IMG/VR virus record: IMGVR_UViG_3300030397_000530 | Location: 1-46,741 of that record | Direction: 5' to 3' (one strand) | DNA from: a virus | Taxonomy: Duplodnaviria > Caudoviricetes | Length of the DNA: 46,741 nt | Shown here: one piece after another, positions 17,658 through 46,741 of the stretch | Position numbering within the stretch: the first letter of the stretch is position 1 | Layout of the letters: every line of letters starts with the position of its first letter | Position numbers and translations under genes: made by a program | Notes under the pieces: model-generated | Database searches by the model: none | What the model was told of the DNA's origin: nothing | What the model saw: the letters and a program-made list of their open reading frames with translations, nothing else

Positions 17658-18242
17658 ATGACGCTGAACTTTATTTTTGGTTTTATTGCTCTGGTAGCTG
17701 TCTCGATGTCGATCCTAATAGCTCGGAAGCGCAATACCAACTTTTCAGGGCATCTTGAGGACTTAGAAAACATATTCAAAGTTTTATCGGGTATCGAAAG
17801 AGAAACCCAGATTGAGCGCACATTGATATTTATGACTAAAAACACGGGCACAAAGCCGACACCCGGCGTACCTATTTATGTTACCTGTATCTATGAGGGA
17901 CCGAATACGCAAGAGAGAGCGCAGTATCAAAATATACAGGTAGATGCTGAGTATGTATCAATGATGTTACAGGCCAAAAGAGATAACCGAATAGATTATG
18001 TTGTCGAGCTAATGGAGCCTTCATTATTGCAAAGGATCTATACTTCGCAAGGTGTGACATTTAGTTCTATCTTCTTTATTCATGAAGACTCGAAAGCGTT
18101 TTACTATGGTTCTTTTGCATCCCACACGATGAAGTACCCGGATGCCGCCACCGATGTAAAGATAGACTTAGCTATTAGCCAGTTGCAATACATCTGGAAG
18201 CGGCCAAAGAATAAAATTTTCAACTTTAAAATAAAGCTATGA
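17658..18242 (+). CDS. Single-pass membrane protein, putative holin
   Basis: One N-terminal transmembrane segment plus a globular alpha/beta domain (T4 T-holin-like architecture), at the end of the tail module. Confidence 0.45.
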   Translation: MTLNFIFGFIALVAVSMSILIARKRNTNFSGHLEDLENIFKVLSGIERETQIERTLIFMTKNTGTKPTPGVPIYVTCIYEGPNTQERAQYQNIQVDAEYVSMMLQAKRDNRIDYVVELMEPSLLQRIYTSQGVTFSSIFFIHEDSKAFYYGSFASHTMKYPDAATDVKIDLAISQLQYIWKRPKNKIFNFKIKL

Positions 18243-19017: not shown

Positions 19018-19304
19018 AAAACTATGCGTAAAAATTAGCGCATTGTGGGCTATTCTGAGCGAGTTTAAGACATTTTGTTCTTTCCAGGGGTTTGTATCAT
19101 TTCGCCCTTGAGTCGCTTAAAACAGCTTAAAACGCCTTAAAGATGTTTTGAAGCGGATATTAAATATCCATTCCCCCGCGAACTGCACCAAAGCAGATCA
19201 TTCCCCCGTCCCCCTAATTTTTAAAATTATCGTCCGGTCCTCTCTCAGTACATCTGTTGGGGGACTTTTGTATTTGGGGTTGGGCCGGACCAATTCTAAA
19301 TGCT

Positions 19305-20552
19305 ATGAGGGGGACATACCGACCAAGAATACCAACCTATTTTGAGCAGCATTTACCCTGGATTAGAAATCTAAGCCATGAGCAACTGTGTAACATCAGA
19401 GACAATCTAGGCGATCTATCCAATCCAGAGAGTAGCTTCACCAGGAAAAAGGAAGAAATAAAGAAGGAATCCAAAAACGGGGTTTTGTCTGTAGAGTACA
19501 AGGGACCAAAAACAATTACCACTACTGAACAGGCTGCGGAGCTTTGCGACATTGATTTAAACCAATGGGAAGCTAAAGACGGAATCTCTTTTCGGAATTG
19601 GGAAGTGACCACAAGCGAGGGCAATACCTACACTAATTATTACTTCCGGGTAGATTTCAAAAGAAAGAAAAAAGACCTGGAGCAGATCAGAGCTGCGCTG
19701 CTGGCTGATATTCCCTCTGCTCCGGTATCGAAACCCGTTCAAAGAAAAAAAAGGGCATCACAGCATCCCTATGTGGTCGAGTTTGCTATTATGGATCTGC
19801 ATTTGGGCAAGATTCCGTACACCAAAGAGGTAGAATGGAGCTTGGAGGATTCCCGCAAAGTCTATTTTGCTGCGATCTTTGACACATTGGAGCAATTAGA
19901 TACTTCGAAGATTGATCACTTTATTCTGCCTACCGGAAACGATTTTTTCAATATTGATACTCCATTCAATGCCACCACGAAAGGCACTCCGCAAATGGCC
20001 GGCATTCACTGGACTGATTTATTTTCTTTTGGTCATCAGTTGGTGAGTAGTGCCATAACTGAACTAGTGAAGATTGCACCCGTTTTTGTTTACATGGTTC
20101 CGGGTAATCATGATCAGAATAGTGTGTTTACAATGGGAGAAGTTTTGGCAGCAAGATTTGAAGGGAATAAATATGTGACAATTAATAACACGCCTATCAA
20201 AAGAAAGTATCACCGCTTCGGATTGAATCTCATTGGCTTTTCTCATGGGAATAATATCAAAGCAAAAGACGCATTCAGTGCAATGAGTACAGATCAGCCG
20301 GTCGAATTTGGACAAACGAAATTCCGATACTTTCATACCGGACACCTACACAAAAATTCAAAGCGGTGGAATGTCGATACTCAGATCAAGGATGAATACA
20401 ACGGGGTCGAAATCGAGGTCTGCCCGTCCTTGTCTCCGACCGATGTTTGGCATTATCAGAATTTATACACCGGGAACATTCGCAGGTCAAAGGCTTTTGT
20501 TTACCACCGAGATAAGGGAATGGTAAAGGAATTCAATTACACCCTTCAATAA
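19305..20552 (+). CDS. Calcineurin-like metallophosphoesterase
   Basis: DLHLG, GNDFF..D, PGNHD, SHG and GHLH motifs. ATG at 19305 (GCTATG context) is preferred to TTG at 19257. Confidence 0.88.
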   Translation: MRGTYRPRIPTYFEQHLPWIRNLSHEQLCNIRDNLGDLSNPESSFTRKKEEIKKESKNGVLSVEYKGPKTITTTEQAAELCDIDLNQWEAKDGISFRNWEVTTSEGNTYTNYYFRVDFKRKKKDLEQIRAALLADIPSAPVSKPVQRKKRASQHPYVVEFAIMDLHLGKIPYTKEVEWSLEDSRKVYFAAIFDTLEQLDTSKIDHFILPTGNDFFNIDTPFNATTKGTPQMAGIHWTDLFSFGHQLVSSAITELVKIAPVFVYMVPGNHDQNSVFTMGEVLAARFEGNKYVTINNTPIKRKYHRFGLNLIGFSHGNNIKAKDAFSAMSTDQPVEFGQTKFRYFHTGHLHKNSKRWNVDTQIKDEYNGVEIEVCPSLSPTDVWHYQNLYTGNIRRSKAFVYHRDKGMVKEFNYTLQ

Positions 20553-20885
20553 AAAAGCCGGATCAATTGACCCGGCCACAAAGCACAAAAAACGCATAAG
20601 AGCGTTCTCCAACAGCTTTAACTGAACTTCATTGCTAGTGAAAGCCGGGCCAACTTCTGCCCGGCTGCTAATAACAGATCTATTTCACTAATACAACTAT
20701 TGCCTTTCTGAAAAAGACTGCGACCGGAGTCGCAGCCCTGAGCAACTTATGCGAAAACAACTCTACTCTTCAAGTAAAAGCCAGGGCTGGAGCCCTGACC
20801 GATCGATACTAAAAGAAACTTACTCGCTGATTTTGGAAAATGGACCAGGCTGACGGATCAGCCCGATCCAATACCCCAAAAAACC
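20553..20885 (-). ncRNA. Hairpin-spacer array L1 (five GC hairpins), putative sRNA array
   Basis: Hairpins at 20557-76, 20643-66, 20716-37, 20779-800 and 20842-69. Plus-strand A.C mismatches become G.U pairs on the minus strand; two UCCG loops; each hairpin is followed by a short U-run on the minus strand. Confidence 0.55.
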
Positions 20886-20890
20886 TTCTT

Positions 20891-21442
20891 TTATCTCTTT
20901 GTTGATTCTGCATAAACCCATTTATAGCCACAAACTAGGTGGTTCTTTTTCTTTCCTGCGACATTTCTAATCGTCTGATTGTGAACACCCATTGCCCTGG
21001 CAGCCTGACCTGCCGAATAGTATGTTTTTACAATCTCGTTTGTTTCGGGGTCTAACTGGTGGACTGCTTTAGATAGTGGGTGTTTTTGAAATGCACGATC
21101 TATTAAGCCGTTGGTAATTGCGTGCCTAATATTGCTTTTGTGGCTAACCCACTCTAAATTATCCAAGCAATTATTACTCTTGTCTCCATCTATATGGTTC
21201 ACATACTCCATTCCTTCGGGCGGTCCTCCCTTAAACGAAAGCAGTACAAGCCTGTGAACTCTGGCGAATTTATACTTTCCCTTATTGCTTAACCAAATTC
21301 TGCAATACCCTTTTCTGTTTGTTTGTTGCTTTCTTATCATTGCAACTTTACCACAAAGGGACTTTATTCTCCCATAGTTTGAGATCTCATAACGCCCTTC
21401 ATAACCCAACATTGGAACAAATATTTCATCTATTTCTTGCAT
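20891..21442 (-). CDS. NUMOD4-HNH-NUMOD1 homing endonuclease
   Basis: GYEGRYEISNYGRIKS (NUMOD4), VHRLV...VNHIDGDKSNN.LDNLEWV (HNH), YYSAGQAAR (NUMOD1), GYKW. Confidence 0.92.
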   Translation of the reverse strand: MQEIDEIFVPMLGYEGRYEISNYGRIKSLCGKVAMIRKQQTNRKGYCRIWLSNKGKYKFARVHRLVLLSFKGGPPEGMEYVNHIDGDKSNNCLDNLEWVSHKSNIRHAITNGLIDRAFQKHPLSKAVHQLDPETNEIVKTYYSAGQAARAMGVHNQTIRNVAGKKKNHLVCGYKWVYAESTKR

Positions 21443-21642: not shown

Positions 21643-22962
21643 TTATCTGTTTGGCTTGCACCCATCGGAGCAATACCTATTCCTTGGACCCGCTGCCTTG
21701 AACTCAGTTCCACATCCTTTGCACTCGATTATATCTCCCTTTCTCACGCGTACGCGTGCGCGGCTACGTGCGGCTGCGCGCGCAGCTGCGCGCGCAGCTG
21801 CATTATGCGTAGGCGCGAGGGAATTACTCTTGTCTCTTTTTTTCGGAGCAGGGGAGGTGTTTTGACTCTCGATGCTCTCTCCTGCTTTGATAGCAAGCCT
21901 TGTATTCAATTCCTGGTTTTGAATTGCCATACTTGCAGTCAATCGACTAAAGGGTATTTTAATCCGATCAATGATTGCTTGAATAGTAATTGATTCTTTT
22001 ATTTCGATTCCGTTTTTACCCTGCTCCCTTCTTTTCTCAATTTTGAGCGTGAATAGGAGGAATGATAAAAGAGCCAAAGCAGGCTCCAGAAAGTTCAAAA
22101 ATACAGACAATCTTTTTCCCGCTTTACGCGCACTGTCATTGGTTGTTTCTATGTCGTTGTTTACCATTTCGACTACCTGATTTTTGGCGGCTGATTGATC
22201 CATTTTAGACTGATAGGCAAAGTCGTTTATTTTCTTTTGTAGTTCGTCTATTTCATTGTCTTTCTTTGTGATAGCTTGAGAAAAAGCCTTTAGCGTATGG
22301 CAGTTTTCACAGCGATTCAATGCAGAGTTAATACTACCTGCAAGATACTGCTTTCTGGCATAAGATGTTGTTTGATTGAGCATGGTTTCCTTTTCCCGCT
22401 TCAGTGTTGTTAGCTGATCATTCCAGGAAGCCAATAAAGGGTCTTCCGTGATGCTTTCGATCTGGTTAGCCACGATTGCTTTTTCAACCAATTCTGTCCT
22501 TTCTTGGATCGTGACTTTCTTTGATTCCTCATAGGCGTCTTTGATGAATCCATTTGATAGAAGACTTACAGTTGCAGTCAGTGCGTACAGAAAGAAAATC
22601 ACTAGCATGATACTAAACCATTTAGCTGTCTTTGGTTGAAGATCTCCGGCATGTGCCTTTTCCTGTGCAGTCTCTTTGTAAATAGCCAAAATCCCATCGA
22701 CACACATGGCAGATATAAGGGCAGTTACTATGCACCAAGCCTTGTGTAGTTCGAATGACGCTCCGATATTATATCCAGTTACTCCACTGGTGATAGCTAA
22801 AACCATATCAGGAGCTATGCTTGCGTATTTGAGCTTGGTATAACTCTGCCTGAGTGCAGTCTTATGCACAAAGTTATCATAAAGCCTAATTAACTTTCCT
22901 CCAGAGGGTATCTTTTTTTGTTGCTTGTTTTCTCCTAAATGCTCGACCTTTAATGCTTTCAT
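21643..22962 (-). CDS. Membrane protein with coiled coil, Arg/Ala linker and C-terminal zinc finger
   Basis: Three to four hydrophobic segments, a long coiled coil, CENC, and CKGC-x11-RYCSDGC at the C-terminus. Confidence 0.75.
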   Translation of the reverse strand: MKALKVEHLGENKQQKKIPSGGKLIRLYDNFVHKTALRQSYTKLKYASIAPDMVLAITSGVTGYNIGASFELHKAWCIVTALISAMCVDGILAIYKETAQEKAHAGDLQPKTAKWFSIMLVIFFLYALTATVSLLSNGFIKDAYEESKKVTIQERTELVEKAIVANQIESITEDPLLASWNDQLTTLKREKETMLNQTTSYARKQYLAGSINSALNRCENCHTLKAFSQAITKKDNEIDELQKKINDFAYQSKMDQSAAKNQVVEMVNNDIETTNDSARKAGKRLSVFLNFLEPALALLSFLLFTLKIEKRREQGKNGIEIKESITIQAIIDRIKIPFSRLTASMAIQNQELNTRLAIKAGESIESQNTSPAPKKRDKSNSLAPTHNAAARAAARAAARSRARVRVRKGDIIECKGCGTEFKAAGPRNRYCSDGCKPNR

Positions 22963-24214: not shown

Positions 24215-24964
24215 ATGAAAAGCACCAAAAATACCAAGCTAATAGAGAGCAGGTATAAACACAAAACCAAGTTATATATTTTCCTGATCTCCGCTGCACT
24301 AGCCTCTGTTAACTACCTTTTAGCTGTCATTTTTAGTGATGGACACGCTAAGGTTTACTTATTTGTAACCTGGCAGCTATTCTGGTGGTTCATGTACAGC
24401 TACTCCAAACACTTGATCAAAGACGGTATTATTCCACAAAAGACACCTACCCGGATATTTGCTATCGGTATTTCCATAAATGCCGCATTTCTGGCAGTAG
24501 GGCAGTTGATAACCAGGTGGCTAACAGATCTGCGTTTTGCTGATCCATTTTGGAAGATATTCGCCTCTGATATGGTGGCGGCCGTTTTGATCGGAGGCAT
24601 TTACTTTTACTTTAGAACACACCAGCACAATGCCAAACGCAGGAAACAGGAAATGAAAACCTATGAGGTATTAGGGAAGCGGTTGGTACTGAATCTGCGG
24701 AGTATGGAGAATTGGTCATCGATCCGGCTTGAATCAGAATACCTCTACCCAGGACTGATTGATGAAATAAAAAAAAATGGTGATTTTCCAGATATATACA
24801 TCCGTATGATCGTATATAATAAATTTGATTTCTCAGCGGCTAAAATTATGCAGATAGAAGGGATTACTCGACAAACAATGAGAAAACGGAATGAGCGAAT
24901 GAGAGACAAGGTAAGGCAGGAAACAGGCATGGAGTTGTCAGATTTCTTGCAAAAACTCGGTTAG
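24215..24964 (+). CDS. Membrane-anchored transcriptional regulator (4 TM plus LuxR-like HTH)
   Basis: Four hydrophobic helices, then FSAAKIMQIEGITRQTMRKRNERMRDKV, resembling Bacteroidota C-terminal LuxR-type HTH domains. Confidence 0.6.
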   Translation: MKSTKNTKLIESRYKHKTKLYIFLISAALASVNYLLAVIFSDGHAKVYLFVTWQLFWWFMYSYSKHLIKDGIIPQKTPTRIFAIGISINAAFLAVGQLITRWLTDLRFADPFWKIFASDMVAAVLIGGIYFYFRTHQHNAKRRKQEMKTYEVLGKRLVLNLRSMENWSSIRLESEYLYPGLIDEIKKNGDFPDIYIRMIVYNKFDFSAAKIMQIEGITRQTMRKRNERMRDKVRQETGMELSDFLQKLG

Positions 24965-25040
24965 TCACGCAATGTCACGGTCTGGTCACGATTTGTCACG
25001 GCTTGTCACGCAATGTCACAACCCGGTCACACAGGGTCAC
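24964..25040 (+). repeat. Eight helically phased GTCAC direct repeats
   Basis: GTCAC starts at 24964, 24974, 24985, 24995, 25005, 25015, 25026 and 25036. Confidence 0.92.
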
Positions 25041-25144
25041 AAAGATTTAATAGAAAAAGAAATGAACTATTGACATAAGGGTGATATGTGCATAAATTAT
25101 TAATTGTCACCTATTAACAAACCAAAACAACAGGGGGGGGAGAT

Positions 25145-26130: not shown

Positions 26131-26475
26131 TTATTGACTATCTAGCTTGTGTAATATCAAATTCAGAGTATTCTTTATCTCTGCTAAATCAAAAATAGAT
26201 TTCTTTAGTTGCTCAACCTCTTCTTTCAGGGCTTTGATCTGTGCCTGTGCATCAAAAACCGAGTTGTTCTCCTGGGCTTCTTCTGGCAGAAATAGAGAAT
26301 AAGCACTCGCCAATCGATTCAATTCACCCTCCTGTACTTTCTTAACCCTGCCTGTGTTAATATTCTTTAGTCGCTGCTCGTCTATTCCGATCCGATTAGA
26401 AATGGCATGATAGGAGACTCCTTCTGTACCATTGATGATTCCAAGGTATTCAATAAATTTTTCGCTGTTACTCAC
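26131..26475 (-). CDS. CI-like HTH repressor without peptidase domain
   Basis: VSYHAISNRIGIDEQRLKNINTGR HTH plus a C-terminal coiled coil; divergent from the early rightward operon. Confidence 0.75.
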   Translation of the reverse strand: MSNSEKFIEYLGIINGTEGVSYHAISNRIGIDEQRLKNINTGRVKKVQEGELNRLASAYSLFLPEEAQENNSVFDAQAQIKALKEEVEQLKKSIFDLAEIKNTLNLILHKLDSQ

Positions 26476-26850: not shown

Positions 26851-27303
26851 ATGACCAAACACATCCAACCAGTAACGAACTGTCCACAATGGGATGCAAT
26901 CGATCAAAACCCGATTGAATCGGACGGAAAGGGATTTCTAATTATTTGCAGCAGAGGGCCAATGAGGCTTTTCATCTACAATGATGATCACGAATTCGAG
27001 ATCATTGACAAAAAGGTTTTGCAGATCCTGAATGCAGCGGGAGTGATTTCAGACTACCGGATTTCAGAAACGCGGAGAGGGATCAGGATGGTAAATATTT
27101 TCACAGAAATCAGGGTAGACAAAAAACTGCACGCTCATGGGCGACAAATGAAGGTTTTTGAATTCCTACGGCAAAACACAGAAAAGAATTTAGACCTGCT
27201 CTTAGCCACTGCGATCGAGGAAACGAAAGAGGGCAGTATTGAAGGGATATATATTCCTGAGAAGCATGTTTCTGCGATAGACCTGATTAACGAACTCCTA
27301 TAA
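26851..27303 (+). CDS. Hypothetical protein
   Basis: 150-aa ORF in the early operon. Confidence 0.7.
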   Translation: MTKHIQPVTNCPQWDAIDQNPIESDGKGFLIICSRGPMRLFIYNDDHEFEIIDKKVLQILNAAGVISDYRISETRRGIRMVNIFTEIRVDKKLHAHGRQMKVFEFLRQNTEKNLDLLLATAIEETKEGSIEGIYIPEKHVSAIDLINELL

Positions 27304-27352: not shown

Positions 27353-28309
27353 ATGACAAAAGTAAATAATAATCAACAAAAGGGCAAGATGTCAGCAGTT
27401 CAGAAACTGGTCAGCAGTAAGAAGGATTTAGCGGAAAAAATGGAACAGGCCGGAATGCAGCCGAAAGCCATTTTTAGGGAAATCTCTTTTGCTCTTCAAT
27501 TGGTTAATCAGGATCAGCAGTTGCAAAAATGCACTCCCGTTAGTTTGCAAAGCGCTGTGGTTAATATCGCCAATATCGGATTAACACTGAATCCGGCAGC
27601 ACAAGAGGCGGCACTGATTGCCCGTTACAATGGCAGGACCAGGCAACTGGAGGCTCAACTGATGCCGCAATATAGAGGACTTGCAAAGCTCGCCTGTCAA
27701 AATTCAAACGTAGTTGATATTACTTGCAATGTGGTTTTTGATAAGGATGAATTTTCTCTGGACCTTGCCAATACTGATAAGCCGGTAACGCACAAACCAT
27801 ATCTGAAAAAAGATCGCGGCGAGATATACGGAGCTTATGCCATTGCAACTGATGCGAACGGATTGAAAAAGGTTGAATGGATGCCGATTGAAGATATTGA
27901 GCAGGCCCGTAATTGCAGCGATGGATTCAAAGCATTTCAGAGCAAGAAAATCAAATCTACTCCCTGGCATGATTGGTTCCCTGAGATGGCAAGAAAGAGT
28001 GTCTTGAAAAGGATCATCAAGTATATCTCCGGCACAACTGAAAATGAGGAATTGTCAACAGCAGTACAGCTGGATAATGAGGATTACCCGGCTGATGCTA
28101 ATCAGATGATGTACATCGATCATTTGCTCAGAACAGCTAATATCTCAGACGAAGAAAACAACCGGATTTACAGTACTTCAAGCATGAGCAGATCAGAGGC
28201 AACTGAGACAATCAAATACCTGAAAGCAAATCAACTCGAAGGAGTCCGCTATAATGGAGGCGGCAGCATGAAGGAAATAGGCGATAGTGTTGAAAATGCA
28301 GTCAAGTGA
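27353..28309 (+). CDS. recT: RecT-family single-strand annealing protein
   Basis: GLTLNP...AALI, YRGLAKLA, V...DEF, GAYA, PW..WFPEMARKSVLKR motifs. Confidence 0.88.
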   Translation: MTKVNNNQQKGKMSAVQKLVSSKKDLAEKMEQAGMQPKAIFREISFALQLVNQDQQLQKCTPVSLQSAVVNIANIGLTLNPAAQEAALIARYNGRTRQLEAQLMPQYRGLAKLACQNSNVVDITCNVVFDKDEFSLDLANTDKPVTHKPYLKKDRGEIYGAYAIATDANGLKKVEWMPIEDIEQARNCSDGFKAFQSKKIKSTPWHDWFPEMARKSVLKRIIKYISGTTENEELSTAVQLDNEDYPADANQMMYIDHLLRTANISDEENNRIYSTSSMSRSEATETIKYLKANQLEGVRYNGGGSMKEIGDSVENAVK

Positions 28310-28794
28310 AAGACCTAATTCTTACATACACAGGTAAAGTTGAGAACGGCCAAGTATTTGGTCCACGTACCAAGCAACGATTCAGAGCAGAGGTCGGCAG
28401 GGCCTTTGAAGGCAAGCGGATCGAAATTACTGTACAGCGAAAAAAGAAGCGCAGGAGTCCGGAACAGAATCGATACTATTGGGGATTGGTGTTGAATATT
28501 TTATCTCACCAATTCAAAGAGTGGAATCCTGATCTGGAGATTACAACCGATATAGTCCATGAATGGTGCAAAGAGCGTTTTTTACCAATGATTTCCGATT
28601 GGGAGGATGTGAAGATAAAAACGCCGGAAGGAGAAAAGGAAATCCGTAAAACTACTACGCGGATGACTACAGTTCAGTTCATGGATTATATCGCTTTGAT
28701 TCAGCAGTTTGCAGCAGAGTATGGCTTTTATATTCCGGATCCGGATGAGTGGGAATTTGAGAGCGTGGAGGCTATTGATATCGATGCACACTAG
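28306..28794 (+). CDS. NinB/Orf-like recombination accessory protein
   Basis: RSPEQNRYYWG and TT.MT..QF.DYI..IQ.FAAEYG..IP motifs. Confidence 0.75.
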   Translation: MKDLILTYTGKVENGQVFGPRTKQRFRAEVGRAFEGKRIEITVQRKKKRRSPEQNRYYWGLVLNILSHQFKEWNPDLEITTDIVHEWCKERFLPMISDWEDVKIKTPEGEKEIRKTTTRMTTVQFMDYIALIQQFAAEYGFYIPDPDEWEFESVEAIDIDAH

Positions 28795-28818: not shown

Positions 28819-28905
28819 ATGAATACAGGAATACTAGTGCTGATACTGGCCTTTCTTTGGCTGATCGCACGACCACGAAAAACACAGATCAAAAGAGATC
28901 TGTAA
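28819..28905 (+). CDS. 28-aa hydrophobic peptide
   Basis: MNTGILVLILAFLWLIARPRKTQIKRDL: one TM segment and a basic tail. Confidence 0.5.
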   Translation: MNTGILVLILAFLWLIARPRKTQIKRDL

Positions 28906-28919
28906 GTGTTGCAGATGAT

Positions 28920-29270
28920 TGCAGGGCCCGGTTAGACTTCCGGGCTTAATTTGAATGATTTTCGTTTTTTCATATAGGTTTAATGATTGATTCCGGCTGC
29001 AAGGTCGCGCAGCCGGTTTTCTTTGAAAAGGTTACCAGGGTTTATTTTTTCATGTGCAAATTGATTGAAGTTTTTGGGGTTTACCGTCCGGTCACTGAGG
29101 CCGGACCTTTTCAAAGAAAGAGAGGTTATAGGTAATAGGGTTTAAGCATGTTTCTAGCCGGGCTTTTGTGATTGGATCGGCCCGGCTTTATTTGAAAAGT
29201 TGGTTTTCGTTTGATACTCACCAGGGGCGCAATTATTTTCTCTCGGTTAGGGAATTGCCCCTGGTTAATT
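28920..29270 (+). ncRNA. Hairpin-spacer array R (five GC hairpins), putative sRNA array
   Basis: Hairpins at 28924-47, 28993-29016, 29086-106, 29156-87 and 29220-65, separated by U/G-rich spacers. Four are followed by TT..GAA. Confidence 0.55.
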
Positions 29271-29295
29271 TTCTAACGGCTTTAAACAAAACATC

Positions 29296-29496
29296 ATGAA
29301 CGAAAAGGATTTGCAACTACTGGAAGATGCCAGAATGGAAGCCTGGCACAAAGGCGACAAAGAAGAGTTTGATACCCTCGGCAAAGAGGGTAAGCGATTA
29401 GAGGATGAAGATATTGAACCCAAGTATGGACCGCAGCCAGACAGATCAGATTGTCCAGCATACAAAAGCGGATGTTGGGGTATTAATTGCTGTTAA
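29296..29496 (+). CDS. Hypothetical protein
   Basis: 66 aa with Cys-rich end; A-rich leader. Confidence 0.6.
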   Translation: MNEKDLQLLEDARMEAWHKGDKEEFDTLGKEGKRLEDEDIEPKYGPQPDRSDCPAYKSGCWGINCC

Positions 29497-29517
29497 TTAA
29501 CTGGTCGGAAACATACT

Positions 29518-29739
29518 ATGCTATTAATAAGAATTAAGAATACAGTAGAGATCAAAGGAAGGCGAAACCTCAAGGAGTCCATAGGCGAGGCTATTTGGTT
29601 TTGCAAAATATTTGAATGCAATGCTGTACTGATTTGGGGGCTGAATGAGGAATACAAGTTCCCGATTACCAAAGAATCAAGAGTTGAAGAAATACAGGAA
29701 TTGGCGCATAAAGAATTTAATAAATCAAGGCTCAAATAG
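29518..29739 (+). CDS. Cassette hypothetical protein
   Basis: 73 aa, bounded by GGTCG sites. Confidence 0.6.
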   Translation: MLLIRIKNTVEIKGRRNLKESIGEAIWFCKIFECNAVLIWGLNEEYKFPITKESRVEEIQELAHKEFNKSRLK

Positions 29740-29756
29740 GGTCGAAATAGTGTAAC

Positions 29757-29969
29757 ATGAAAAAGCTAAAGTATAAGAAAATGAAGCGGCTTTTTTTCAG
29801 CAACAGGAAGAAGTTTGAAAAAAAGATTAAGAAATATTACAAGAACTCAGATAGGAGATATGAAGAAACTTTTCAGAATGAAGGGGAAAAGGAAATTTGG
29901 GTTGTGACTAATGGACATTGTTATTCATTAAAAGAAGTTTGTAAGGTGTATGTCCCAATATTTTTTTAA
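29757..29969 (+). CDS. Cassette hypothetical protein (Lys-rich)
   Basis: 70 aa, bounded by GGTCG sites. Confidence 0.6.
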   Translation: MKKLKYKKMKRLFFSNRKKFEKKIKKYYKNSDRRYEETFQNEGEKEIWVVTNGHCYSLKEVCKVYVPIFF

Positions 29970-29988
29970 CGGTCGAAATTCCGAAATT

Positions 29989-30114
29989 ATGGAAAACTTA
30001 TTAATCAAGTACGCTATAATGCTGTCCAGTAGTCCAAAAAAGGACTACAAAGAAGTACTTCGACTATTAAGAGAATTGGAGAAAAAAATTAAATCACAGA
30101 AGACCGCAGAATAG
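29989..30114 (+). CDS. Cassette hypothetical protein (41 aa)
   Basis: MENLLIKYAIMLSSSPKKDYKEVLRLLRELEKKIKSQKTAE fills the space between two GGTCG sites. Confidence 0.55.
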   Translation: MENLLIKYAIMLSSSPKKDYKEVLRLLRELEKKIKSQKTAE

Positions 30115-30264
30115 CGGTCGGTTTGATAGCATGATAATTCATTATTAAGTATAGCCACAGGCGGCTTAAGGGCTTTCGGATAAATGACCAGCCCGGATGT
30201 AAGAAGACAATCAGAGTAACCAGATCGAAAGGGATGCCGCCGCCTTTTCGGTCGATTTAGCAGC

Positions 30265-30432
30265 ATGGAAAAAGAGGAATTAATACAGGTAATAACAGAA
30301 CTCAGGGTCTTACACGACTGCAAAGATAGCCTAACAGAACACGGAGAGTCTGAATATATTAGGCTGAAAGAATTATTACTTGATCACTTGTTAGACCTCA
30401 AAGAATTAATTAACCAACCGGCCCAGTCATAG
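30265..30432 (+). CDS. Cassette hypothetical protein (55 aa)
   Basis: MEKEELIQVITELRVLHDCK...NQPAQS fills the space between two GGTCG sites. Confidence 0.55.
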   Translation: MEKEELIQVITELRVLHDCKDSLTEHGESEYIRLKELLLDHLLDLKELINQPAQS

Positions 30433-30531
30433 GGTCGAATTAAGAAGTAGACCTTTGCGCCACCAACTCGGGCGACATTGGGCGGTGGGTGGAAGCCCCA
30501 CACTTTTTTAACGGTTGTTAAACTAACTGAT

Positions 30532-30729
30532 ATGATTTTCGATTGCTTTGAAGGTAAATTAGGGAAAACCATAATTATAATGGAAGATGCAGCCATTATC
30601 CTTTATGTACATGATGACAAGAGAATACAGCAGCCAGAAGGAAAGCCAGTTAATGTTGAGTTGATAAAATTAGCTTGTATTATATGCGAGAACTTTGATT
30701 TTTGGTGGATAAGATTGCAGATTTTATAA
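30532..30729 (+). CDS. Cassette hypothetical protein (65 aa)
   Basis: ATG at 30532 follows TAACGGTTG; the ORF ends at TAACGGTCG. Confidence 0.55.
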   Translation: MIFDCFEGKLGKTIIIMEDAAIILYVHDDKRIQQPEGKPVNVELIKLACIICENFDFWWIRLQIL

Positions 30730-30800
30730 CGGTCGGTTAAATAACCACCAGAACACCCAAAGCTCACAAGAGATCGCACCTAAAACCACAAAAGACACAC

Positions 30801-30864
30801 TATTAGAAAAAGGTTAACCTTGATAATTTTAAGAAATATTAAAGTGTAATGGCTTTTGTGTAAT
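30801..30864 (+). repeat. res-like direct repeat, copy A
   Basis: 57/64 identical to 41144-41207, which lies directly upstream of the resolvase gene. Confidence 0.9.
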
Positions 30865-31405: not shown

Positions 31406-32302
31406 ATGAATACACTAAAGAAAATCTTATCCAGGTTAGTCGGAAATGCCAACACGCTATCCAATAACGTTCTGTTTATTGACTTCACCGGATCACACGA
31501 AAAAGGCCAGTATTTGAGCCAGTTATTTTACTGGAGCGGGAAGACCAAAATGAAGGATGGTTTTTTCGCCAAAAGCTATGCCGATTGGTACGAAGAAATC
31601 CGAATAAAAGAACATAGTATCAGGAGATACACGAAGGAATTTAAGTCATTCGGCTGGCTCGAAACAAAGGTTGTGAAATTCAATAAAGTGCCAACTCTGC
31701 ACTACAAATTAGACCAGGATAAATTAATCACTGCACTGGTGACATTTTGCGATACTGACAATTTGCGACCCTCACACGGTGCAAGGGTGGACCCTGACAA
31801 TTTGCAAGGGTCCAGGGAACCTGACACTGTGCAAGGGTCCATTAACAGAGACTTACATAGATTACATACAGAGAGAGAACGCGCGCACGAAAAAGAAAAT
31901 AATATCCAACCTAAACAAAATAATAACCCTCCAAAAGTTGCGCTAAAAGGTTCCCTGGATATTAACCCGCTGAAATACGAATCCACCGCGATCTTTTTTG
32001 CCAATCAATTACAAAAGACTTTCCCGACATCCATCAAGGAGCTACAAAACATAGTCGGCGGTAAAATCGGAGAGCATATCAAATCCTATTTCCGGAACCT
32101 ACAGAAAAAGGACGAATGGTATCAATTACAGGAACCAGACGAATCCAGGATGAATTCATGGATCTCCAAGCACTATGCCGGAGTAGAAATGTGGCTAAAG
32201 AATGAAAAGAAGTTTTGGCCAACCAAAGAAGATAAAAACAAAGTCAGATACGAAGCACCAAAAAATGTTTTCACTGCTGATCAGTTGAAAAAATCCGCAT
32301 GA
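31406..32302 (+). CDS. Replication initiator (lambda O-like, winged helix)
   Basis: LSQLFYWS...DGFFAKSY..W.EE HTH; internal iterons; directly upstream of DnaB. Confidence 0.8.
   Translation: MNTLKKILSRLVGNANTLSNNVLFIDFTGSHEKGQYLSQLFYWSGKTKMKDGFFAKSYADWYEEIRIKEHSIRRYTKEFKSFGWLETKVVKFNKVPTLHYKLDQDKLITALVTFCDTDNLRPSHGARVDPDNLQGSREPDTVQGSINRDLHRLHTERERAHEKENNIQPKQNNNPPKVALKGSLDINPLKYESTAIFFANQLQKTFPTSIKELQNIVGGKIGEHIKSYFRNLQKKDEWYQLQEPDESRMNSWISKHYAGVEMWLKNEKKFWPTKEDKNKVRYEAPKNVFTADQLKKSA
31739..31930 (+). other. Putative origin of replication (iterons plus A-rich tract)
   Basis: TGACAnnnTGC(AAGGGTCC)-like repeats at about 31740, 31756, 31772, 31795 and 31822 inside the initiator gene, followed by an A-rich tract at 31890-31930. 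Confidence 0.7.
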
Positions 32303-37745: not shown

Positions 37746-37970
37746 GTGACGTATATTGAGTGCATGGAAATAATCACTGGATACATAGAGCGGATTTTGG
37801 AAAATCCTGAGCTGTACCAAAAACTCCACCGACAGACAAAGAAGCGACTCCAGGAAGGTAGCGCAAAATTAGAGTTGCAAAAAAGAGCAGTTGAGACATG
37901 CTTCCCCGGTTGCAGGGTTTTATTGGTGGTTGAGGATGAAAAAGCGCGGATCGATACAGAAGAGGCATAA
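37746..37970 (+). CDS. Hypothetical protein
   Basis: 74-aa ORF with GTG start. Confidence 0.5.
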   Translation: MTYIECMEIITGYIERILENPELYQKLHRQTKKRLQEGSAKLELQKRAVETCFPGCRVLLVVEDEKARIDTEEA

Positions 37971-37999
37971 ATTACGTAAACACCTTGTTTTTATCCAAA

Positions 38000-38215
38000 A
38001 AGGATACAAAACGGATACACAAAAAATAAAAACCGTTGTAACTAATTGATAAACAGGCAGGTAAAAAAGAGACACTAAGTTATAGTTTAACTTTTTCAGC
38101 GAGTTTTAACGGTTTGGTTTTGGCAACGCAAAGTATTGTTTTGCGTAGGATTAGGAGAGGGGTTTTCCAAAAGTAGCCAGAAGCGAACATAAAAACGGAT
38201 ACATTTTGGATACAC
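38000..38215. other. Putative intact attP
   Basis: Paired GGATACA arm-type repeats at 38002/38013 and 38197/38208. IHF-consensus site on the minus strand at 38039-51. Candidate core AAGTTA-N5-TAACTT at 38077-93. Confidence 0.7.
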
Positions 38216-38251
38216 CTCATTTCCATTTTAAACAACAGGTAAATTTTTAAC

Positions 38252-39451: not shown

Positions 39452-39481
39452 TTTTTTAACTGGTCGAGATACTAAAGAACC

Positions 39482-40515: not shown

Positions 40516-41124
40516 TTAAGAGGCTTCATCCGACCTCTTTTTCTTTTCCTTCAATTTTTCCTCATACCAGTGCAAGTGTTTATAGTAGGTAGTAGTTGAG
40601 CCGATCTTTAACATCTCCATGACTTCTTTGACGGTATATTCCCCAGTGTGATGCAAGGCATGTAATTGAACCGCTCTGACCTGGTTGCGCCTGGTAATCC
40701 CTTTTGGCCTCCCGATCACCATGCCTTTCTTCCTGGCTGCTTCCAAGCCTCCCTTTGTCCGCTCCACAATTAACTCTCGTTCAAACTCAGCCAACGCAGC
40801 CAGAATGGTAAATACCAACTTTCCGATTGCGGAGCTGGTGTCAATGCTTTCAGTCAGTGAAATAAATTCGATTTTCTCTTTCTGGAAATAAGTGATTAAT
40901 TCAATCAGGTGTTTTACCGACCTTCCGATCCGGGATAGCTTGACCACTACCACAGTATCACCAGGGCGCAACATCTCCAACATTCGGTTCAATCCGCTTC
41001 GATTAGTCTTTGCTCCACTGGCAATATCTTTGAAAATACGATCGCAGCCATATTTCTCCAACTGCATTTCTTGTCTACCAAAATCCTGTGATTCAGTAGA
41101 GATCCGCATATATCCAAACCTCAT
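40516..41124 (-). CDS. Small serine recombinase (resolvase/invertase)
   Basis: GYMRIST..Q...RQ, D.ASG...R.GL, GDTVVV.KL.RIGR, LAEFERELI.ERT..G...AR..G...GRP, plus C-terminal HTH. Confidence 0.95.
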   Translation of the reverse strand: MRFGYMRISTESQDFGRQEMQLEKYGCDRIFKDIASGAKTNRSGLNRMLEMLRPGDTVVVVKLSRIGRSVKHLIELITYFQKEKIEFISLTESIDTSSAIGKLVFTILAALAEFERELIVERTKGGLEAARKKGMVIGRPKGITRRNQVRAVQLHALHHTGEYTVKEVMEMLKIGSTTTYYKHLHWYEEKLKEKKKRSDEAS

Positions 41125-41143: not shown

Positions 41144-41254
41144 TATTAGAAAAAGGTCAAGTTAGCGAATTTTAAGAAATATTAAAGTGTAATGACTTTT
41201 GTGTAATCTGATCCAAAAAGGGTAAAATTGCACCATTACGGATAATTTCGTAAC
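41144..41254. promoter_or_regulatory. res-like site, copy B, overlapping the resolvase and late promoters
   Basis: 41144-41207 repeats copy A; an extra inverted repeat, ATTACG..CGTAAC, lies at 41235-54. The site begins 20 nt upstream of the resolvase ATG. Confidence 0.65.
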
Positions 41255-41718: not shown

Positions 41719-42437
41719 AAATATTACTACTGATAGCAGCATGGCAGCGACATGAAACTGCTCGGATAACCTACCAGCAATTAATGCAGGTAGAAACAGA
41801 ATGGAATAATCTAGGCATTACACTCATTCCGCTTGTAATTTGCAGCAACTCAGAAGATGCTGCTCTGGCTAATTCGTTCGGGTTCATCACCTATTATCAC
41901 AAAAACTCACCACTTGGCGAAAAGATGAATGCAGGGCTGAAAAGAGCCCTAGAATTCAAGTGTGACTACATCATGCAGCTAGGTAGCGATGATCTGTTAG
42001 ATGCAAACCTCATTAATTTCTATTTAGATCCCTTGCTTAGAAAGTCGCCTTTCTTTGGCCTTTCATCTCTGTATTTCTATGATCAACAAGGCGACCGGCT
42101 AAAGGAATTGCAATTAACAAATGTTATTGGGGCAGGACGGTGTATAAGGCGTGACATTTGCGAATTTATGTCTGAGAATTTCGGCCTGTGGTATTACAGG
42201 ACTGAAAAGGGATTAGATAATGACAGCGAGGCCCGCATTTATGACTTCATGGGGTTTGAGCAACATAGAGTGCAATATATCAAAACACCAACTCCGATGA
42301 TCCTGGACATCAAAGATGGTGAAAATCTGCATTCTTTTGATGATTGGGGATCAGCCAATGGAGAGCAGCAGCGAATGATTGAGGGAGGCGAAAAAGCAGG
42401 GGTATTAAGAAGATTTGGAATGAACAAAGGCGAATGA
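41715..42437 (+). CDS. Glycosyltransferase, GT-A fold
   Basis: LIAAWQR, PLGEKMNAGL, YIMQLGSDDL, GAGR and GLD motifs. Confidence 0.72.
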   Translation: MKILLLIAAWQRHETARITYQQLMQVETEWNNLGITLIPLVICSNSEDAALANSFGFITYYHKNSPLGEKMNAGLKRALEFKCDYIMQLGSDDLLDANLINFYLDPLLRKSPFFGLSSLYFYDQQGDRLKELQLTNVIGAGRCIRRDICEFMSENFGLWYYRTEKGLDNDSEARIYDFMGFEQHRVQYIKTPTPMILDIKDGENLHSFDDWGSANGEQQRMIEGGEKAGVLRRFGMNKGE

Positions 42438-43024
42438 TAAAAGTCATCGGAACTGGATCTGGCCGCTGTGGAACAACTAGCCTTGCGGAATTACTGGATA
42501 AACAACCATGTATTGTGTCATGCACACATGAGTTATTCCGGTTTAATATTCCCTATCCTGGTAGCCAGAGCAGTAAAGCGCAGGGAAATGCCTTAGCAAA
42601 AGCAATGATAGAAAACGAAGGATGCGACGTGGCCCTGCAATGGCTCTGGTATGCTTCGATCTTTATCAATGCTGGCTACAAGATTATTTGCCTACAGCGC
42701 AACAAACGGGAAACGATTAAATCATTTGAGCGCAAATTAACTCCATTTGCCTACAATCATTTTAGCGAAAAGGACGGCAACCCCTCGCCCTGGGATCAGT
42801 GCTTTCCAAAGTTCAAAGAAAGGACACTCAAGGTAGGGGTTAACAAATACTACGACATGTTTTATTTCCAGGCTAGATTTCTGGCAAGACAATCTGATCG
42901 GTTCAGGATATTCGATAGCTCAAAGGTTCTGAATAATGCTGAAGCACAAAAAGAAATGCTGAACTGGATTGGTATTGAAGATCCGGTAATTGATACAGGG
43001 ATAAGAAAAAACGCATTGGCATGA
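42434..43024 (+). CDS. Sulfotransferase-like P-loop protein
   Basis: KVIGTGSGRCGTTSL..LL (5'-PSB loop), HE, IICLQR...TIKS (3'-PB). Confidence 0.75.
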   Translation: MIKVIGTGSGRCGTTSLAELLDKQPCIVSCTHELFRFNIPYPGSQSSKAQGNALAKAMIENEGCDVALQWLWYASIFINAGYKIICLQRNKRETIKSFERKLTPFAYNHFSEKDGNPSPWDQCFPKFKERTLKVGVNKYYDMFYFQARFLARQSDRFRIFDSSKVLNNAEAQKEMLNWIGIEDPVIDTGIRKNALA

Positions 43025-43743
43025 ATTACGCATTTGCCATAACCACCTTTTTAAGACCGAACAGCTTTAAAAACTGCCTGGAATCGGTTCGAGAATTCTA
43101 TCCGGATATTCCGATATACGTAGCTGATGATAGCGACGATCAAAGCTATCATGATAATCCGGACTATGAACTGATCTCGCTGCCATTTAATCAGGGAATC
43201 AGCGTAAAGCGAAATGTAATTGCACAACAGGCCAAAGAAGATATACTGATTTATTTCGACGATGATTTTGCATTAGATGATAAAGAAGCTATTGAAAAAC
43301 TGATTACTCCAGTTTGGTTAGATCAGTGCGATTTATGTGCCGGCAGTGTGGCGAATAACGGCGAGAAAGTAAAATACGAAGGTCGATTCTATCAAAATGG
43401 CAATACGTTGGAAGTCCAGGCAGAGGCAACGCATATCAAAACAAACTACCTGGAAACGGACCTGGTGCAAAACTTCTTCGCTGCAAAACGGTCTACATTG
43501 CTCCTCAATGCGTGGGATGACGATTTAAAGATTGGAGAACACATTTTTTTCTTTCATGACGCCTGGAAAACCGGAATGCGTGTCTGGTGGTGCAATGATT
43601 CTGTTATCCCACATGTGCAGGAAGAAAATGCCAGATACATGATGTTTAGAGACACATTCCGAAAATATCAATTAGAAGGCATGAAGAAAAGAGGCATAAG
43701 CGAATTAATAAACCATATTAACGGATCAAATATAAAGCTATGA
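43021..43743 (+). CDS. Glycosyltransferase family 2
   Basis: ITTFLRP...CLES, IYVADDS, GIS.KRN, YFDDDF, NFF, WD..LK.GEH..FF. Confidence 0.88.
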   Translation: MNYAFAITTFLRPNSFKNCLESVREFYPDIPIYVADDSDDQSYHDNPDYELISLPFNQGISVKRNVIAQQAKEDILIYFDDDFALDDKEAIEKLITPVWLDQCDLCAGSVANNGEKVKYEGRFYQNGNTLEVQAEATHIKTNYLETDLVQNFFAAKRSTLLLNAWDDDLKIGEHIFFFHDAWKTGMRVWWCNDSVIPHVQEENARYMMFRDTFRKYQLEGMKKRGISELINHINGSNIKL

Positions 43744-44111
43744 GCTATCGGCAGTATGTAGACAAGGGTAAAGAAACCGACCTGAGCAGCATTGTTGTTC
43801 CAAGCGAAGCTGTCAATGTGTTGTATAACAGAAACCAAACAATTGGCTCTGCATTTGTAAACAGGGACTCAACCGGCATAATGGCTGAGATTAATCTGAA
43901 TGAAATACCCTCTAATGCGGAGCTGTACCCTGTTATAATTGTGCAGCACAATCGCCTAGTGTCGATAAGCCTGAATCCTGAGCGAAATGCAGACCGGACA
44001 ATCAAGGCAATTCAGTTTGTGACGAGCGACGTGATTGAAAAGGAGATCGCGAAAGATGTTCTGAGTGGATTCGAGACATTCGGTAGTGCTATTTTAAGCG
44101 AAGAAGAGTAA
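43740..44111 (+). CDS. Hypothetical protein
   Basis: 123 aa; ATGA overlap with the upstream stop. Confidence 0.65.
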   Translation: MSYRQYVDKGKETDLSSIVVPSEAVNVLYNRNQTIGSAFVNRDSTGIMAEINLNEIPSNAELYPVIIVQHNRLVSISLNPERNADRTIKAIQFVTSDVIEKEIAKDVLSGFETFGSAILSEEE

Positions 44112-44115
44112 GGCT

Positions 44116-44316
44116 ATGCTTAATTCCCCAAACTTTAAAATATCATTTTCTAACCGCATGGGTCTTGCTGTGCGTAGGGCGTCTTACTCGCTAGTAGAAC
44201 TTTCTATCGCGATTTACTTAATAGATAATAATTACGAATCAGCTCTTAATCGAATTCCTGACCTTATAGAAAATTATGTTGATTTGAAGATTTTAGAATT
44301 GAATCAAGATGAATAG
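44116..44316 (+). CDS. Hypothetical protein
   Basis: 66 aa, operonic spacing. Confidence 0.5.
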   Translation: MLNSPNFKISFSNRMGLAVRRASYSLVELSIAIYLIDNNYESALNRIPDLIENYVDLKILELNQDE

Positions 44317-44842
44317 ACGCAGCTTTATAAATAGATCATTATTAGCTGGATTTGGAGCAATGCTACTAACGCCAAATGTAGCAAAGACCCTTGCTATTAA
44401 AAAGAATGCACCAAAAGATCAGGTCAAGGTAATTGGTAATCTGATTGAATTTAATGCCGATTGGCAGGTAAAAATATCCGAGCATTTAGTATTCAAATCA
44501 GATCAGTGTTCCGATTATTATTTCTCCCATCAAAGCCACCGCTGTCGGTACTCAATAGATAAGAACACAGAGATTAAAAAGATACCTGTTAATAGCATAG
44601 ACAAGGTAAGGCTGATCGAGGGCGAGGCAAGGATTATTGATAGTGGCTTTATTTTGGATACCAAAACCTGTTTCCGCTTAGTGGACAACCAAGAACTCAC
44701 GACATTGAAGCTCAATACAATTCATGGCAAATCTCTGGTTTTTGATGCCTACATGACTTCATTGAGCGTTACAGTAGGATCTGGGCAATTTGCGGAAAAA
44801 GATTTAGAGTTTGTAATTACAGGCGCAATACAACTAATGTAA
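44309..44842 (+). CDS. Twin-arginine signal protein with tail-tube-like C-terminus
   Basis: MNRRSFINRSLLAGFGAMLL Tat motif; C-terminal FDAYMTSLSVTVGSGQFAEKDLEFVITGAI. Confidence 0.6.
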   Translation: MNRRSFINRSLLAGFGAMLLTPNVAKTLAIKKNAPKDQVKVIGNLIEFNADWQVKISEHLVFKSDQCSDYYFSHQSHRCRYSIDKNTEIKKIPVNSIDKVRLIEGEARIIDSGFILDTKTCFRLVDNQELTTLKLNTIHGKSLVFDAYMTSLSVTVGSGQFAEKDLEFVITGAIQLM

Positions 44843-44854
44843 AAATACAAAGCT

Positions 44855-45256
44855 ATGAAACACGACACTAAAACACTCATACTGTTATTCGGGTACATCA
44901 TTCTGGTATTCTCTTTCTGCCAATGCAATCAAGGTGATCCGGTTCAACCGATTTGCGACTACACGCACGAAGTTCAATTCAATAATTACGTGTGGGATGT
45001 TATAGTAGACGGGGAAAGCCTGAAAGACAACCCGGCCTTTGATTTTCCATACACAACCGCTGTACCTGGATTAATCGAATCAGATTTGAATACCTGGTTA
45101 AATAGCGATGGCATTGCTGCTGTGACCATAACGAGTCCGGAAAGAGGCTTTTTAATTGTGGTAGAGGAAACGGATAAGGTCTTTGAATCGGTTATATTCT
45201 CAGGAGATAACAGCGGAGGTAATCAGGTTGTGATTGAGTTTATTCAAAGTTGCTGA
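44855..45256 (+). CDS. Putative lipoprotein
   Basis: Hydrophobic N-terminus ending FSFCQC; acidic beta-rich body. Confidence 0.6.
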   Translation: MKHDTKTLILLFGYIILVFSFCQCNQGDPVQPICDYTHEVQFNNYVWDVIVDGESLKDNPAFDFPYTTAVPGLIESDLNTWLNSDGIAAVTITSPERGFLIVVEETDKVFESVIFSGDNSGGNQVVIEFIQSC

Positions 45257-45810
45257 TTTTGAAAAAAGAACAATACAAAGAGCAATTAATGGGCTTGCCT
45301 GAATTAAGCCAAGATCAAAGAGAGGATTCCGTTGATCTGATAGCGGCACTGTTGAGCGAAGCTGACGAATTAAGGAAGATGTTAAGCGATTCAGGGTTGC
45401 GAGTTACTGGACAGCCACCACTACCAATTGTGCAAGGTTTAATTGAAAGAGCAAAACCGAGGATAGAGGAAGAAAAAGTGATTGCAGTAATCAAGAACGG
45501 GCAGCAAATACTGTATTCAGAACAAGGTGAGCGATTGAATTATTTAGCCAGAACAGTAATTGTTGATAGCCCAGAACACAAAGAATGTGAGTTTGAGATG
45601 CTTGTTGATGGCGATTTAGGAACACCAGAACTGCCACAATGGACAACCGAGAAGCATGAAAAATACGATGGTATTTATTACCTGGTTTCTCCGCTCGGTG
45701 TAAAACACGCGTTCAGCCGCTTGTTTGTGCCGTTTCAGGTTAATGACGAAACCAGAGTGCAGATACAATGCGCTGTGGAATTAAGGAATGAACCACCAAA
45801 AGCAGAATAA
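45250..45810 (+). CDS. Hypothetical protein
   Basis: 186-aa ORF; start uncertain. Confidence 0.6.
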   Translation: MLILKKEQYKEQLMGLPELSQDQREDSVDLIAALLSEADELRKMLSDSGLRVTGQPPLPIVQGLIERAKPRIEEEKVIAVIKNGQQILYSEQGERLNYLARTVIVDSPEHKECEFEMLVDGDLGTPELPQWTTEKHEKYDGIYYLVSPLGVKHAFSRLFVPFQVNDETRVQIQCAVELRNEPPKAE

Positions 45811-45812
45811 AC

Positions 45813-46010: not shown

Positions 46011-46017
46011 GACGCAA

Positions 46018-46724: not shown

Positions 46725-46741
46725 GATCGTGACTGGGAAAC
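46725..46741 (-). other. Random-amplification (SISPA / Round A-B) primer artefact
   Basis: GATCGTGACTGGGAAAC is the exact reverse complement of primer GTTTCCCAGTCACGATC and forms the contig end. Confidence 0.92.

Follow-up and report, generated by a model that had tools for sequence, protein, structure and literature searches.

Two five-unit hairpin-spacer arrays in a temperate phage, possible precursors of antisense small RNAs

What does a run of strong GC hairpins, set apart by dissimilar spacers, do in the early operon of a phage? A sequence-only reading of this locus had proposed that it yields several RNAs masking the start codons of host or competitor mRNAs. We analysed the locus in its full context, the window being the whole virus record of 46,741 nt. 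Head, tail, repressor-like (26131-26475, - strand), RecT, NinB, O-like initiator, DnaB, excisionase and integrase genes were recognised in the window using PHROGs (51 ORFs), a gene content from which we deduced that the record is a temperate tailed phage. Its host group is probably the Bacteroidota; a tblastn search against plasmids and phages indicated no host. The record was found in three aquatic metagenome runs of one study and partly in a coral metagenome run, X4, whose contigs represent a related phage (hereafter the X4 relative). A candidate attP (37770-38225) lies between the excisionase and integrase genes, with repeated GGATACA arm-like sites around a core that reads like a gene end on the - strand. 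No attB was found: the attP-core pattern occurred in 0 metagenome stretches and gave only chance-level matches in 201 genomes.

The right array (28924..29272, + strand) belongs to the rightward early operon. It follows recT (27353..28309, + strand), the ninB homologue encoding a NinB/Orf recombination mediator (28306..28794, + strand) and, immediately 5' of it, a 28-codon ORF (28819..28905, + strand), and it precedes the O-like and DnaB genes. It is made of five GC hairpins with U-rich tails and of four spacers, R1 to R4, of approximately 46, 69, 49 and 32 nt. The five hairpins described in the sequence-only reading were all recovered, with energies of -13.4 to -20.4 kcal/mol each: Rh1 (28924-28947, -14.1 kcal/mol), Rh2 (28993-29016, -16.0 kcal/mol), which carries the strongest U tail of this array, Rh3 (29086-29106, -13.4 kcal/mol), Rh4 (29156-29187, -17.1 kcal/mol) and Rh5 (29220-29265, -20.4 kcal/mol). 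CCGG in four of the stems and the four tails that had been quoted are present, TGAA standing in the tails of Rh1 and Rh4. Likewise, CAT is found at 28971 in R1 (28948..28992), at 29051 in R2 (29017..29085) and at 29147 in R3 (29107..29155), R4 (29188..29219) having none. The complement of R1 reads MKKRKSF and that of R3 MLKPYYL; the CAT of R2 sits in a core at 29049-29059, and the R2 unit is closed by a 15-nt perfect inverted repeat (29018-29032 / 29105-29119). Over the region 28880-29320 the folding z-score was -4.1 and 0 of 100 shuffles folded as well. Rfam gave no match at gathering scores anywhere in the window.

The region had also been described as free of ORFs, which proved true of convincing coding sequence only: a 50-codon ORF (28983-29135, + strand) does overlap the right array. 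It has no PHROG match, its start lies in a segment replaced in the X4 relative and its frame is broken there by listed indels, and for these reasons it was treated as non-coding. The 28-codon ORF 5' of the array has a hydrophobic N-terminus and a basic C-terminus; it matched no family, and the changes listed in the X4 relative create no stop in it. Its product is conceivably a type I toxin-like peptide, or a membrane peptide acting in exclusion. A small ORF like it also occurs in the recT operon (4636-4710) of L082, a phage devoid of arrays. On the 5' side of recT, a 150-aa protein (26851-27303, + strand) gave weak structural matches to ferredoxin-like (ACT/ABM) folds, with a TM of about 0.4 and a low-confidence model; an RNA-binding fold is conceivable for it.

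Several other features of the window were recorded on the way. In a run of small ORFs (29503-30738, + strand), the motif GGTCGRWW is placed between a stop codon and the next start, with 7 sites in 1.25 kb; it recurs at 39462 and 40506 and has 29 exact matches in the window for 6.7 expected. It reads as a cassette-junction or leader tag, and no spacer is antisense to it. Three 26-nt iteron-like repeats (31766-31841) lie within the gene for the O-like replication protein. Two 64-nt direct repeats, 89% identical to each other (30801-30864 and 41144-41207), surround a 10.3-kb segment containing replication genes, a methyltransferase, the excisionase, attP, the integrase and a serine resolvase (40516-41124, - strand), and contigs of runs X3 and X4 have loose ends at 30864; the repeat pair looks like resolvase sites that could excise the segment. 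At the right end of the record (42434-46732, + strand), sulfotransferase-like genes (42434-43024 and 46280-46732) and a family 2 glycosyltransferase gene (43021-43743) form a possible virion or surface modification module.

A second array, absent from the sequence-only reading, was found at the end of the leftward operon (20548-20870, - strand). It has the same design as the right one, with five hairpins (20841-20870, 20779-20800, 20714-20739, 20643-20666 and 20556-20577, all on the - strand, -15.2 to -21.5 kcal/mol) and four spacers, L1 to L4. Its folding z-score is -6.5 and its longest U run is that of the last hairpin. L2 (20740..20778) has a CAT at 20749-20751, its complement reading MRKQLY, and L4 (20578..20642) has no CAT; a TAT in a hairpin loop of L4 could pair with AUG by G:U. 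An HNH homing endonuclease gene (20891..21442, - strand), skipped in the contig of the X4 relative, lies just 5' of the array, and an exonuclease-like gene (19257..20552, + strand) converges on its last hairpin. The leftward operon also encodes a 439-aa protein (21643-22962, - strand) with membrane segments, a coiled coil and a C-terminal cysteine finger; no family could be assigned to it, and the finger is common to a syntenic protein of L082 (800-2008, - strand; E 3e-4). GTCAC-rich 10-nt tandem repeats (24958-25042) occur 5' of a small ORF.

Both arrays stand in non-structural operons and share one unit design, in which a U/G-rich spacer leads into a GC stem followed by a U-rich tail, with WGAA as its usual end. 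WGAA is found within 16 nt in the tail of 8 of the 10 units versus 24 of 208 U-tailed host hairpins, a contrast inflated by the shared ancestry of the units. Between the hairpins lies a single variable part of 23-58 nt each time. Neither array has a near-identical direct repeat: the mean column identity is 37%, no tandem repeat was found and the period ranges from 61 to 93 nt.

An array detector, written after the right array had been seen, returned exactly two five-unit arrays in the 46.7-kb window; a stricter first version, which missed these two arrays, was not used. One three-unit cluster was the only detection in 84 RecT loci, and no array was detected in 160 NinB loci (1.45 Mb) or in 800 kb of Chitinophagales DNA; arrays of at least 4 units were absent from approximately 3 Mb of other phage and bacterial DNA. 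With a looser detector applied to a single strand of 165 sequences (2.36 Mb), the right array alone was found and the left one missed. In L024, a distant RecT phage, three GC hairpins with short U tails and spacers of about 30 nt were observed (17746-17888, + strand), their CATs having no start reading. The RecT alignment (80 viral and 4 genome loci, all at most 47% identical) and the NinB alignment (160 loci, 24-44% identity) contain no locus with a comparable array, and no relative emerged when viral contigs were searched with RecT alone. When 50,697 phage records were queried with the array by BLAST, chance matches only were returned, and motif scanning of viral contigs, done twice (32 and 87 stretches), returned chance matches or single terminators. 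L082, which is distant and syntenic, has a single hairpin at each of the two sites and neither array. The array is a real feature, present twice in this phage and rare within the DNA searched.

The X4 contigs align on both arrays and provide conservation evidence from one run and one relative. In the right array, the Rh1 unit is replaced by 67 other letters, and the 3' arm of Rh5 is seen in a loose end. Between 28991 and 29238, the variable spacer parts, 48% of this interval, contain every listed change, 12 indels (p ~1e-4 for the indel bias) and 6 substitutions; the aligned piece has 18 substitutions in all, up to 12 of them unlocalised, and changes near its ends are unlisted. Six of the indels are in R3 and one listed indel is in R4, the stems having none. 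The conserved stems and variable spacers that the sequence-only reading expected from an alignment of related phages are thus seen in this one. In R2, the 11 nt around the anti-AUG (29049-29059) have no listed change, their flanks being altered. As read from the change table, the change adjoining this core is Lys-to-Lys in the complement, and two more R2 changes convert the complement Met-Lys-Lys-stop into an open Met-Lys-Lys-Asn-Thr. Over about 66 codons of ninB, the listed changes are 14 synonymous and 5 non-synonymous; with only these 19 listed, the spacers change much faster than the drift of the neighbouring gene would predict. Alignment on the left array is confined to its first and last units, the middle being unaligned. 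Of the 10 substitutions listed there, nine are located in L4; the remaining one leaves a stem pair intact, as G-U in place of G-C. Judging from these alignments, the arrays appear to evolve in a guide-like way in the single relative available.

All 10 hairpins are strong and U tails are on the operon strand in 10 of 10 units. The U runs, of 4 to 7 U, are often interrupted. Of the five right stems, two are recognised by a terminator scan, which also gives one chance overlap there; it recognises no left stem, and the BLAST matches of the last left unit resemble ordinary terminator-like hairpins. In R2, R3, L1 and L3, the unit can be closed by back-pairing of the tail that follows the hairpin with sequence 5' of the spacer. 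Pairing of tails with their own unit exceeds permuted pairing (p 0.005-0.03 over six related variants of a comparison found after the fact), and these fold-back tails weakly favour a post-transcriptional RNA function over plain termination. In the right array, tail 3 has two possible partners, tail 2 and tail 4, only one of which it can pair with at a time (inverted repeats I1 and I2), an arrangement suggestive of alternative folds or processing. In the unit folds the seeds of R2, L2 and L4 are partly paired. The TAnnTTTG box, the promoter consensus used, does not occur inside either array, so that any RNAs would come from upstream promoters; nor does any nearby box face the arrays from the far side.

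The proposed function depends on how far the spacers resemble start regions read in mirror image. Their composition (U 0.43, G 0.24, C 0.11) is close to that of the complement of start regions (U 0.37, G 0.21, C 0.14) and unlike the other intergenic DNA of the phage, and their keto skew exceeds that of terminator flanks (p 1e-4 against 70 upstream and 9e-4 against 64 downstream flanks). The pattern anti-(AUG-NNN-Lys), i.e. anti-AUG-NNN-AAR, occurs in 4 of the 8 spacers versus about 3% of the same 70 upstream and 64 downstream flanks. All four CAT-containing spacers read AUG-NNN-Lys (shuffle p 5e-5, for a Met-x-Lys statistic picked after the data were seen). The CAT count itself is not significant over both arrays (4 of 8 spacers versus 2.6 in shuffles, p ~0.2), and the position of CAT inside the spacer varies from 6 to 32 nt ahead of the next stem. 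A start model built from 529 predicted starts placed R1 at the 81st and R2 at the 89th percentile, both above 99.7% of 2,896 internal ATGs, and scored R3 and L2 near zero. The summed strict score was borderline (p 0.02-0.10 depending on the type of shuffle, 0.19-0.71 with wobble allowed). Among the three complements described earlier as reading like Bacteroidota start regions, that of R2 reads Met-Lys-Lys-stop, so that R2 is an imperfect mirror of a real start beyond codon 3. Overall, the spacers look like mirrored starts in general, on mixed evidence.

Target tests were all carried out on proxy host genomes, and this weakens every one of them. The proxies were chosen from RecT relatives in named genomes, the best being those in MAGs of the Saprospiraceae (44%), of Lewinella (47%, partial) and of the Cyclobacteriaceae (34%); one more, L082 (41%), is titled Acidimicrobiia and we take it for a mis-binned phage contig. 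Genomes of the family and of the order to which the Saprospiraceae MAG belongs thus served as proxy hosts, as did those of the order of the Cyclobacteriaceae MAG. The R2 core had 31 matches in 251 genomes versus 3 for its reversed control, approximately a tenfold excess. Among 30 of these matches examined, 12 were clear starts and one more was borderline; nearly all the start matches encode Met-Lys-Lys followed by a hydrophobic stretch, mostly in signal-peptide-like proteins. Since the matched genes are all different and ATGAAAAAA by itself marks a start in 16 of 76 cases, this enrichment may only reflect the likeness of R2 to a generic start. The other cores, searched in the same genome family, were not enriched: 8 matches versus 19 for the reversed control with R1 (0 of 8 clear starts), 10 versus 16 with R3 (1 of 10) and 9 versus 7 with L2 (0 of 9).

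The sequence-only reading had also predicted that spacer matches would concentrate over start codons relative to shuffled controls. In a first sample, which had also trained the model, 14 of 320 best duplex matches were at starts versus 3-10 in 15 shuffles; this enrichment failed to replicate in a held-out 800 kb (7 of 320 versus a mean of 6.4, p 0.44). No target gene was identified and no gene recurs as a target in the proxy genomes. The absence of a good self-target in the phage, previously noted, was confirmed within the window. R1 matches 22 of 22 nt over the start of rsmA (ksgA) in genome G148, the only perfect match among the 20 best, for about 0.13 expected over 151 genomes. The leader of this gene is mismatched and 26 other rsmA starts of the G148 family match less well, so that rsmA, near chance level, is a weak candidate. 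BLAST of both arrays against the G148 family gave nothing beyond the rsmA match. A BLAST against the Cytophagales order gave 23 matches, 3 of them in register with a start, all in different genes, and a BLAST of the left array gave 13 matches, 0 at starts. In viral contigs, the exact R2 core was found in 4 stretches, none at a long ORF, the exact L2 core in 1 stretch, at a 46-codon ORF, and the exact R1 core in 0. An absence of specific targets is expected without the true host, and also if the antisense idea is wrong.

We compared the arrays with described systems. The previous statement that no named system is like this one was too strong, as a unit taken alone would act like FopS, GibS or DicF, and tandem processed sRNAs are exemplified by CcsR1-4. 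The likeness to FopS and GibS of Bacteroides thetaiotaomicron lies in the 5' seed followed by a terminator hairpin, and in the U-rich anti-AUG seed. FopS RNAs are reported to consist of a 5' seed and a terminator and pair with susC start regions, one copy being carried by a phage, RbpB is said to prefer AU-rich RNA, and Bacteroides are presented as missing RNA chaperones and having distinct initiation signals (PMC11697453). The same study counts 14 FopS copies sharing one seed (R1 of FopS), each with its own sigma-ABfr promoter (PMC11697453), whereas the phage units are head-to-tail, have differing seeds and contain no internal TAnnTTTG box. R1 together with Rh2 (28955-29027) aligns with positions 1-71 of the Rfam FopS model RF04319, scoring 19 bits (E = 2) where the cut-off is 56. 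Scores of 22-32 bits are attained by unrelated sites in genomes of the Saprospiraceae family and 0 of 101 proxy genomes exceed the cut-off, so membership in FopS was rejected; the left array gave no FopS row against RF04319.

DicF of the Qin prophage is an RNA within a polycistronic operon that blocks host mRNA translation, with a 5' end made by RNase E and a 3' end made by intrinsic termination or RNase III (PMC5069750). The arrays are placed alike, in a non-coding part of what would be a co-transcribed polycistronic prophage operon, and end in a terminator-like hairpin. DicF differs in being one RNA per operon, Hfq-dependent and active in an Escherichia coli host; the arrays have no Rfam match. 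CcsR1-4 of Rhodobacter sphaeroides are several sRNAs cut from a 3' UTR behind a small ORF (PMC8625941), and the right array is similarly preceded by its 28-codon ORF. CcsR is chromosomal, and CcaF1 is an RNA-binding protein whereas the phage ORF looks like a membrane peptide and has no family match. The CcsR units are homologous copies with one shared motif, whereas the array spacers are unrelated in sequence.

TIGR arrays are another phage-borne series of tandem stem-loops with variable guides and little repeat conservation; their units are reported to carry two 8-12-nt spacers between box C and box D, stand beside a Nop-domain Tas gene and target DNA (PMC12045711). By inspection, the present arrays have instead one variable part of 23-58 nt between hairpins, and Pfam detected no Nop family among 57 ORFs, the array neighbours being NinB, the 28-codon peptide, the HNH endonuclease and the exonuclease. 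CRISPR arrays and mini-arrays alternate constant and variable parts, as do these, whose units seem to be exchanged between related phages. The CRISPR assignment was rejected, there being neither near-identical repeats at a regular period nor any cas family: in agreement with the sequence-only reading, none was found in 51 ORFs with PHROGs, 57 with Pfam and 30 with PADLOC, many ORFs having no family at all. The c4 antisense RNA of phages P1 and P7 is a processed phage RNA with paired ends that displays antisense segments and targets its own transcript; it was rejected as well, with no C4 match in Rfam and no self-target in the phage. In the literature searched, most subscription papers lying outside it, no phage array of different anti-start seeds is described, and a tandem array of units with individual seeds appears undescribed.

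Taken together, what the sequence-only reading observed is confirmed and its interpretation is partly supported. We give an even chance to the arrays being precursors of polycistronic antisense sRNAs that act in the manner of FopS or DicF, each unit with its own seed. They would be transcribed from the upstream operon promoters, and RNAs of 55-100 nt would be released by partial termination at the U tails together with cuts by a host nuclease near the U-rich/UGAA linker. Maturation may resemble that of DicF or that of BatR, whose seed is reported to be released by an unidentified Bacteroides nuclease (PMC10861873). The 3' hairpin would protect each RNA, whose tail may fold back on its own unit, and each seed would anneal to a target mRNA across its AUG and first codons, blocking translation. 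More speculatively, the targets may be host genes with Met-Lys/Arg/Leu-Lys starts, probably for exported or envelope proteins as for FopS, and their silencing might exclude competitors or blunt defence; the spacers would turn over as the targets do. A stronger form of this proposal, which we hold to be doubtful, is a programmable multi-guide system devoid of Cas: guide units with constant stem and UGAA tail and variable anti-start seed, exchangeable and kept in two cassettes, would be cut apart at the shared tail and would shut down, at the start codon, eight different mRNAs of host or competitor, units being swapped when the host changes.

The same hairpins can be understood as stacked intrinsic terminators or attenuators with spacers as filler, the right array gating recT-ninB read-through into the replication genes, for which the nin region of lambda offers a parallel, and the left one stopping an antiterminated leftward transcript before the convergent exonuclease gene. 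We consider this possible but unlikely. It agrees with the GC hairpin and U-rich tail of every unit in the operon direction, with the location of the right array between the ninB homologue and the O-like/DnaB genes, with the ending of the left array at a convergent gene on its longest U run, and with the ordinary terminator-like hairpins matched by the last left unit. Conserved stems and drifting spacers would be expected as well, and it is favoured by the target tests, negative in three of four cases, and by the failed held-out enrichment. It accounts less well for spacers whose composition and anti-start content set them apart from the flanks of real terminators (70 upstream, 64 downstream), and which change far faster than ninB while the R2 anti-AUG core is kept. 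Several U runs are short or interrupted, the scan calling two of five right stems (plus one chance overlap) and no left stem; no NusG-, N- or other antiterminator-like family was detected among 57 ORFs; L082 makes do with a single hairpin per site; and the fold-back tails are left unexplained. Less probable in our view is that each array acts as one unprocessed structured RNA or a set of protein-binding sites, i.e. a multi-seed regulator, a decoy for an RbpB-like protein or a nuclease, or an antitermination scaffold, bound at the stem and U-rich/UGAA tail. The tail motif of 8 of the 10 units, the mutually exclusive cross-unit tail pairings (I1 and I2), the half of the spacers devoid of CAT and the preference of RbpB for AU-rich RNA (PMC11697453) point in this direction. 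Unit-wise replacement in the X4 relative, affecting the first right unit and perhaps the unaligned left middle, fits independent modules better, and there was neither an Rfam match nor an RNA-binding family among the scanned ORFs.

Two further accounts were considered. The arrays could be neutral relics, in which terminators and inverted-leader fragments were heaped by recombination at cassette hot spots; small cassette-like genes sharing GGTCGRWW do start right after the right array, and distant relatives have no arrays. A five-unit design occurring twice, stems free of listed indels, and tails that share a motif and pair with their own unit make this highly improbable. The least probable account places the function on the opposite strand, where hairpin, A-rich leader and tiny ORFs (MKK, MLKPYYL, MKKRKSFKLSPEV and one of 34 codons) would be minigenes stalling ribosomes or draining tRNA-Lys, as the bar minigenes of lambda. 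The mini-ORFs exist and have a start-like context, but U tails are on the operon strand in all ten units, no nearby TAnnTTTG box faces the arrays from the far side, and the R2 stop codon is lost in the X4 relative.

The described phage sRNAs that we found act singly, and known tandem sRNAs repeat one seed. If the terminator account were true, the arrays would point to an undescribed antitermination system in such phages. If instead they are precursors of antisense sRNAs, eight anti-start seeds in two modular arrays would be a compact means of reprogramming a host that lacks Hfq and Shine-Dalgarno initiation. The spacers would then list the host proteins that the phage must shut off, and the unit would provide a natural scaffold for multiplexed translational knock-down in Bacteroidota.
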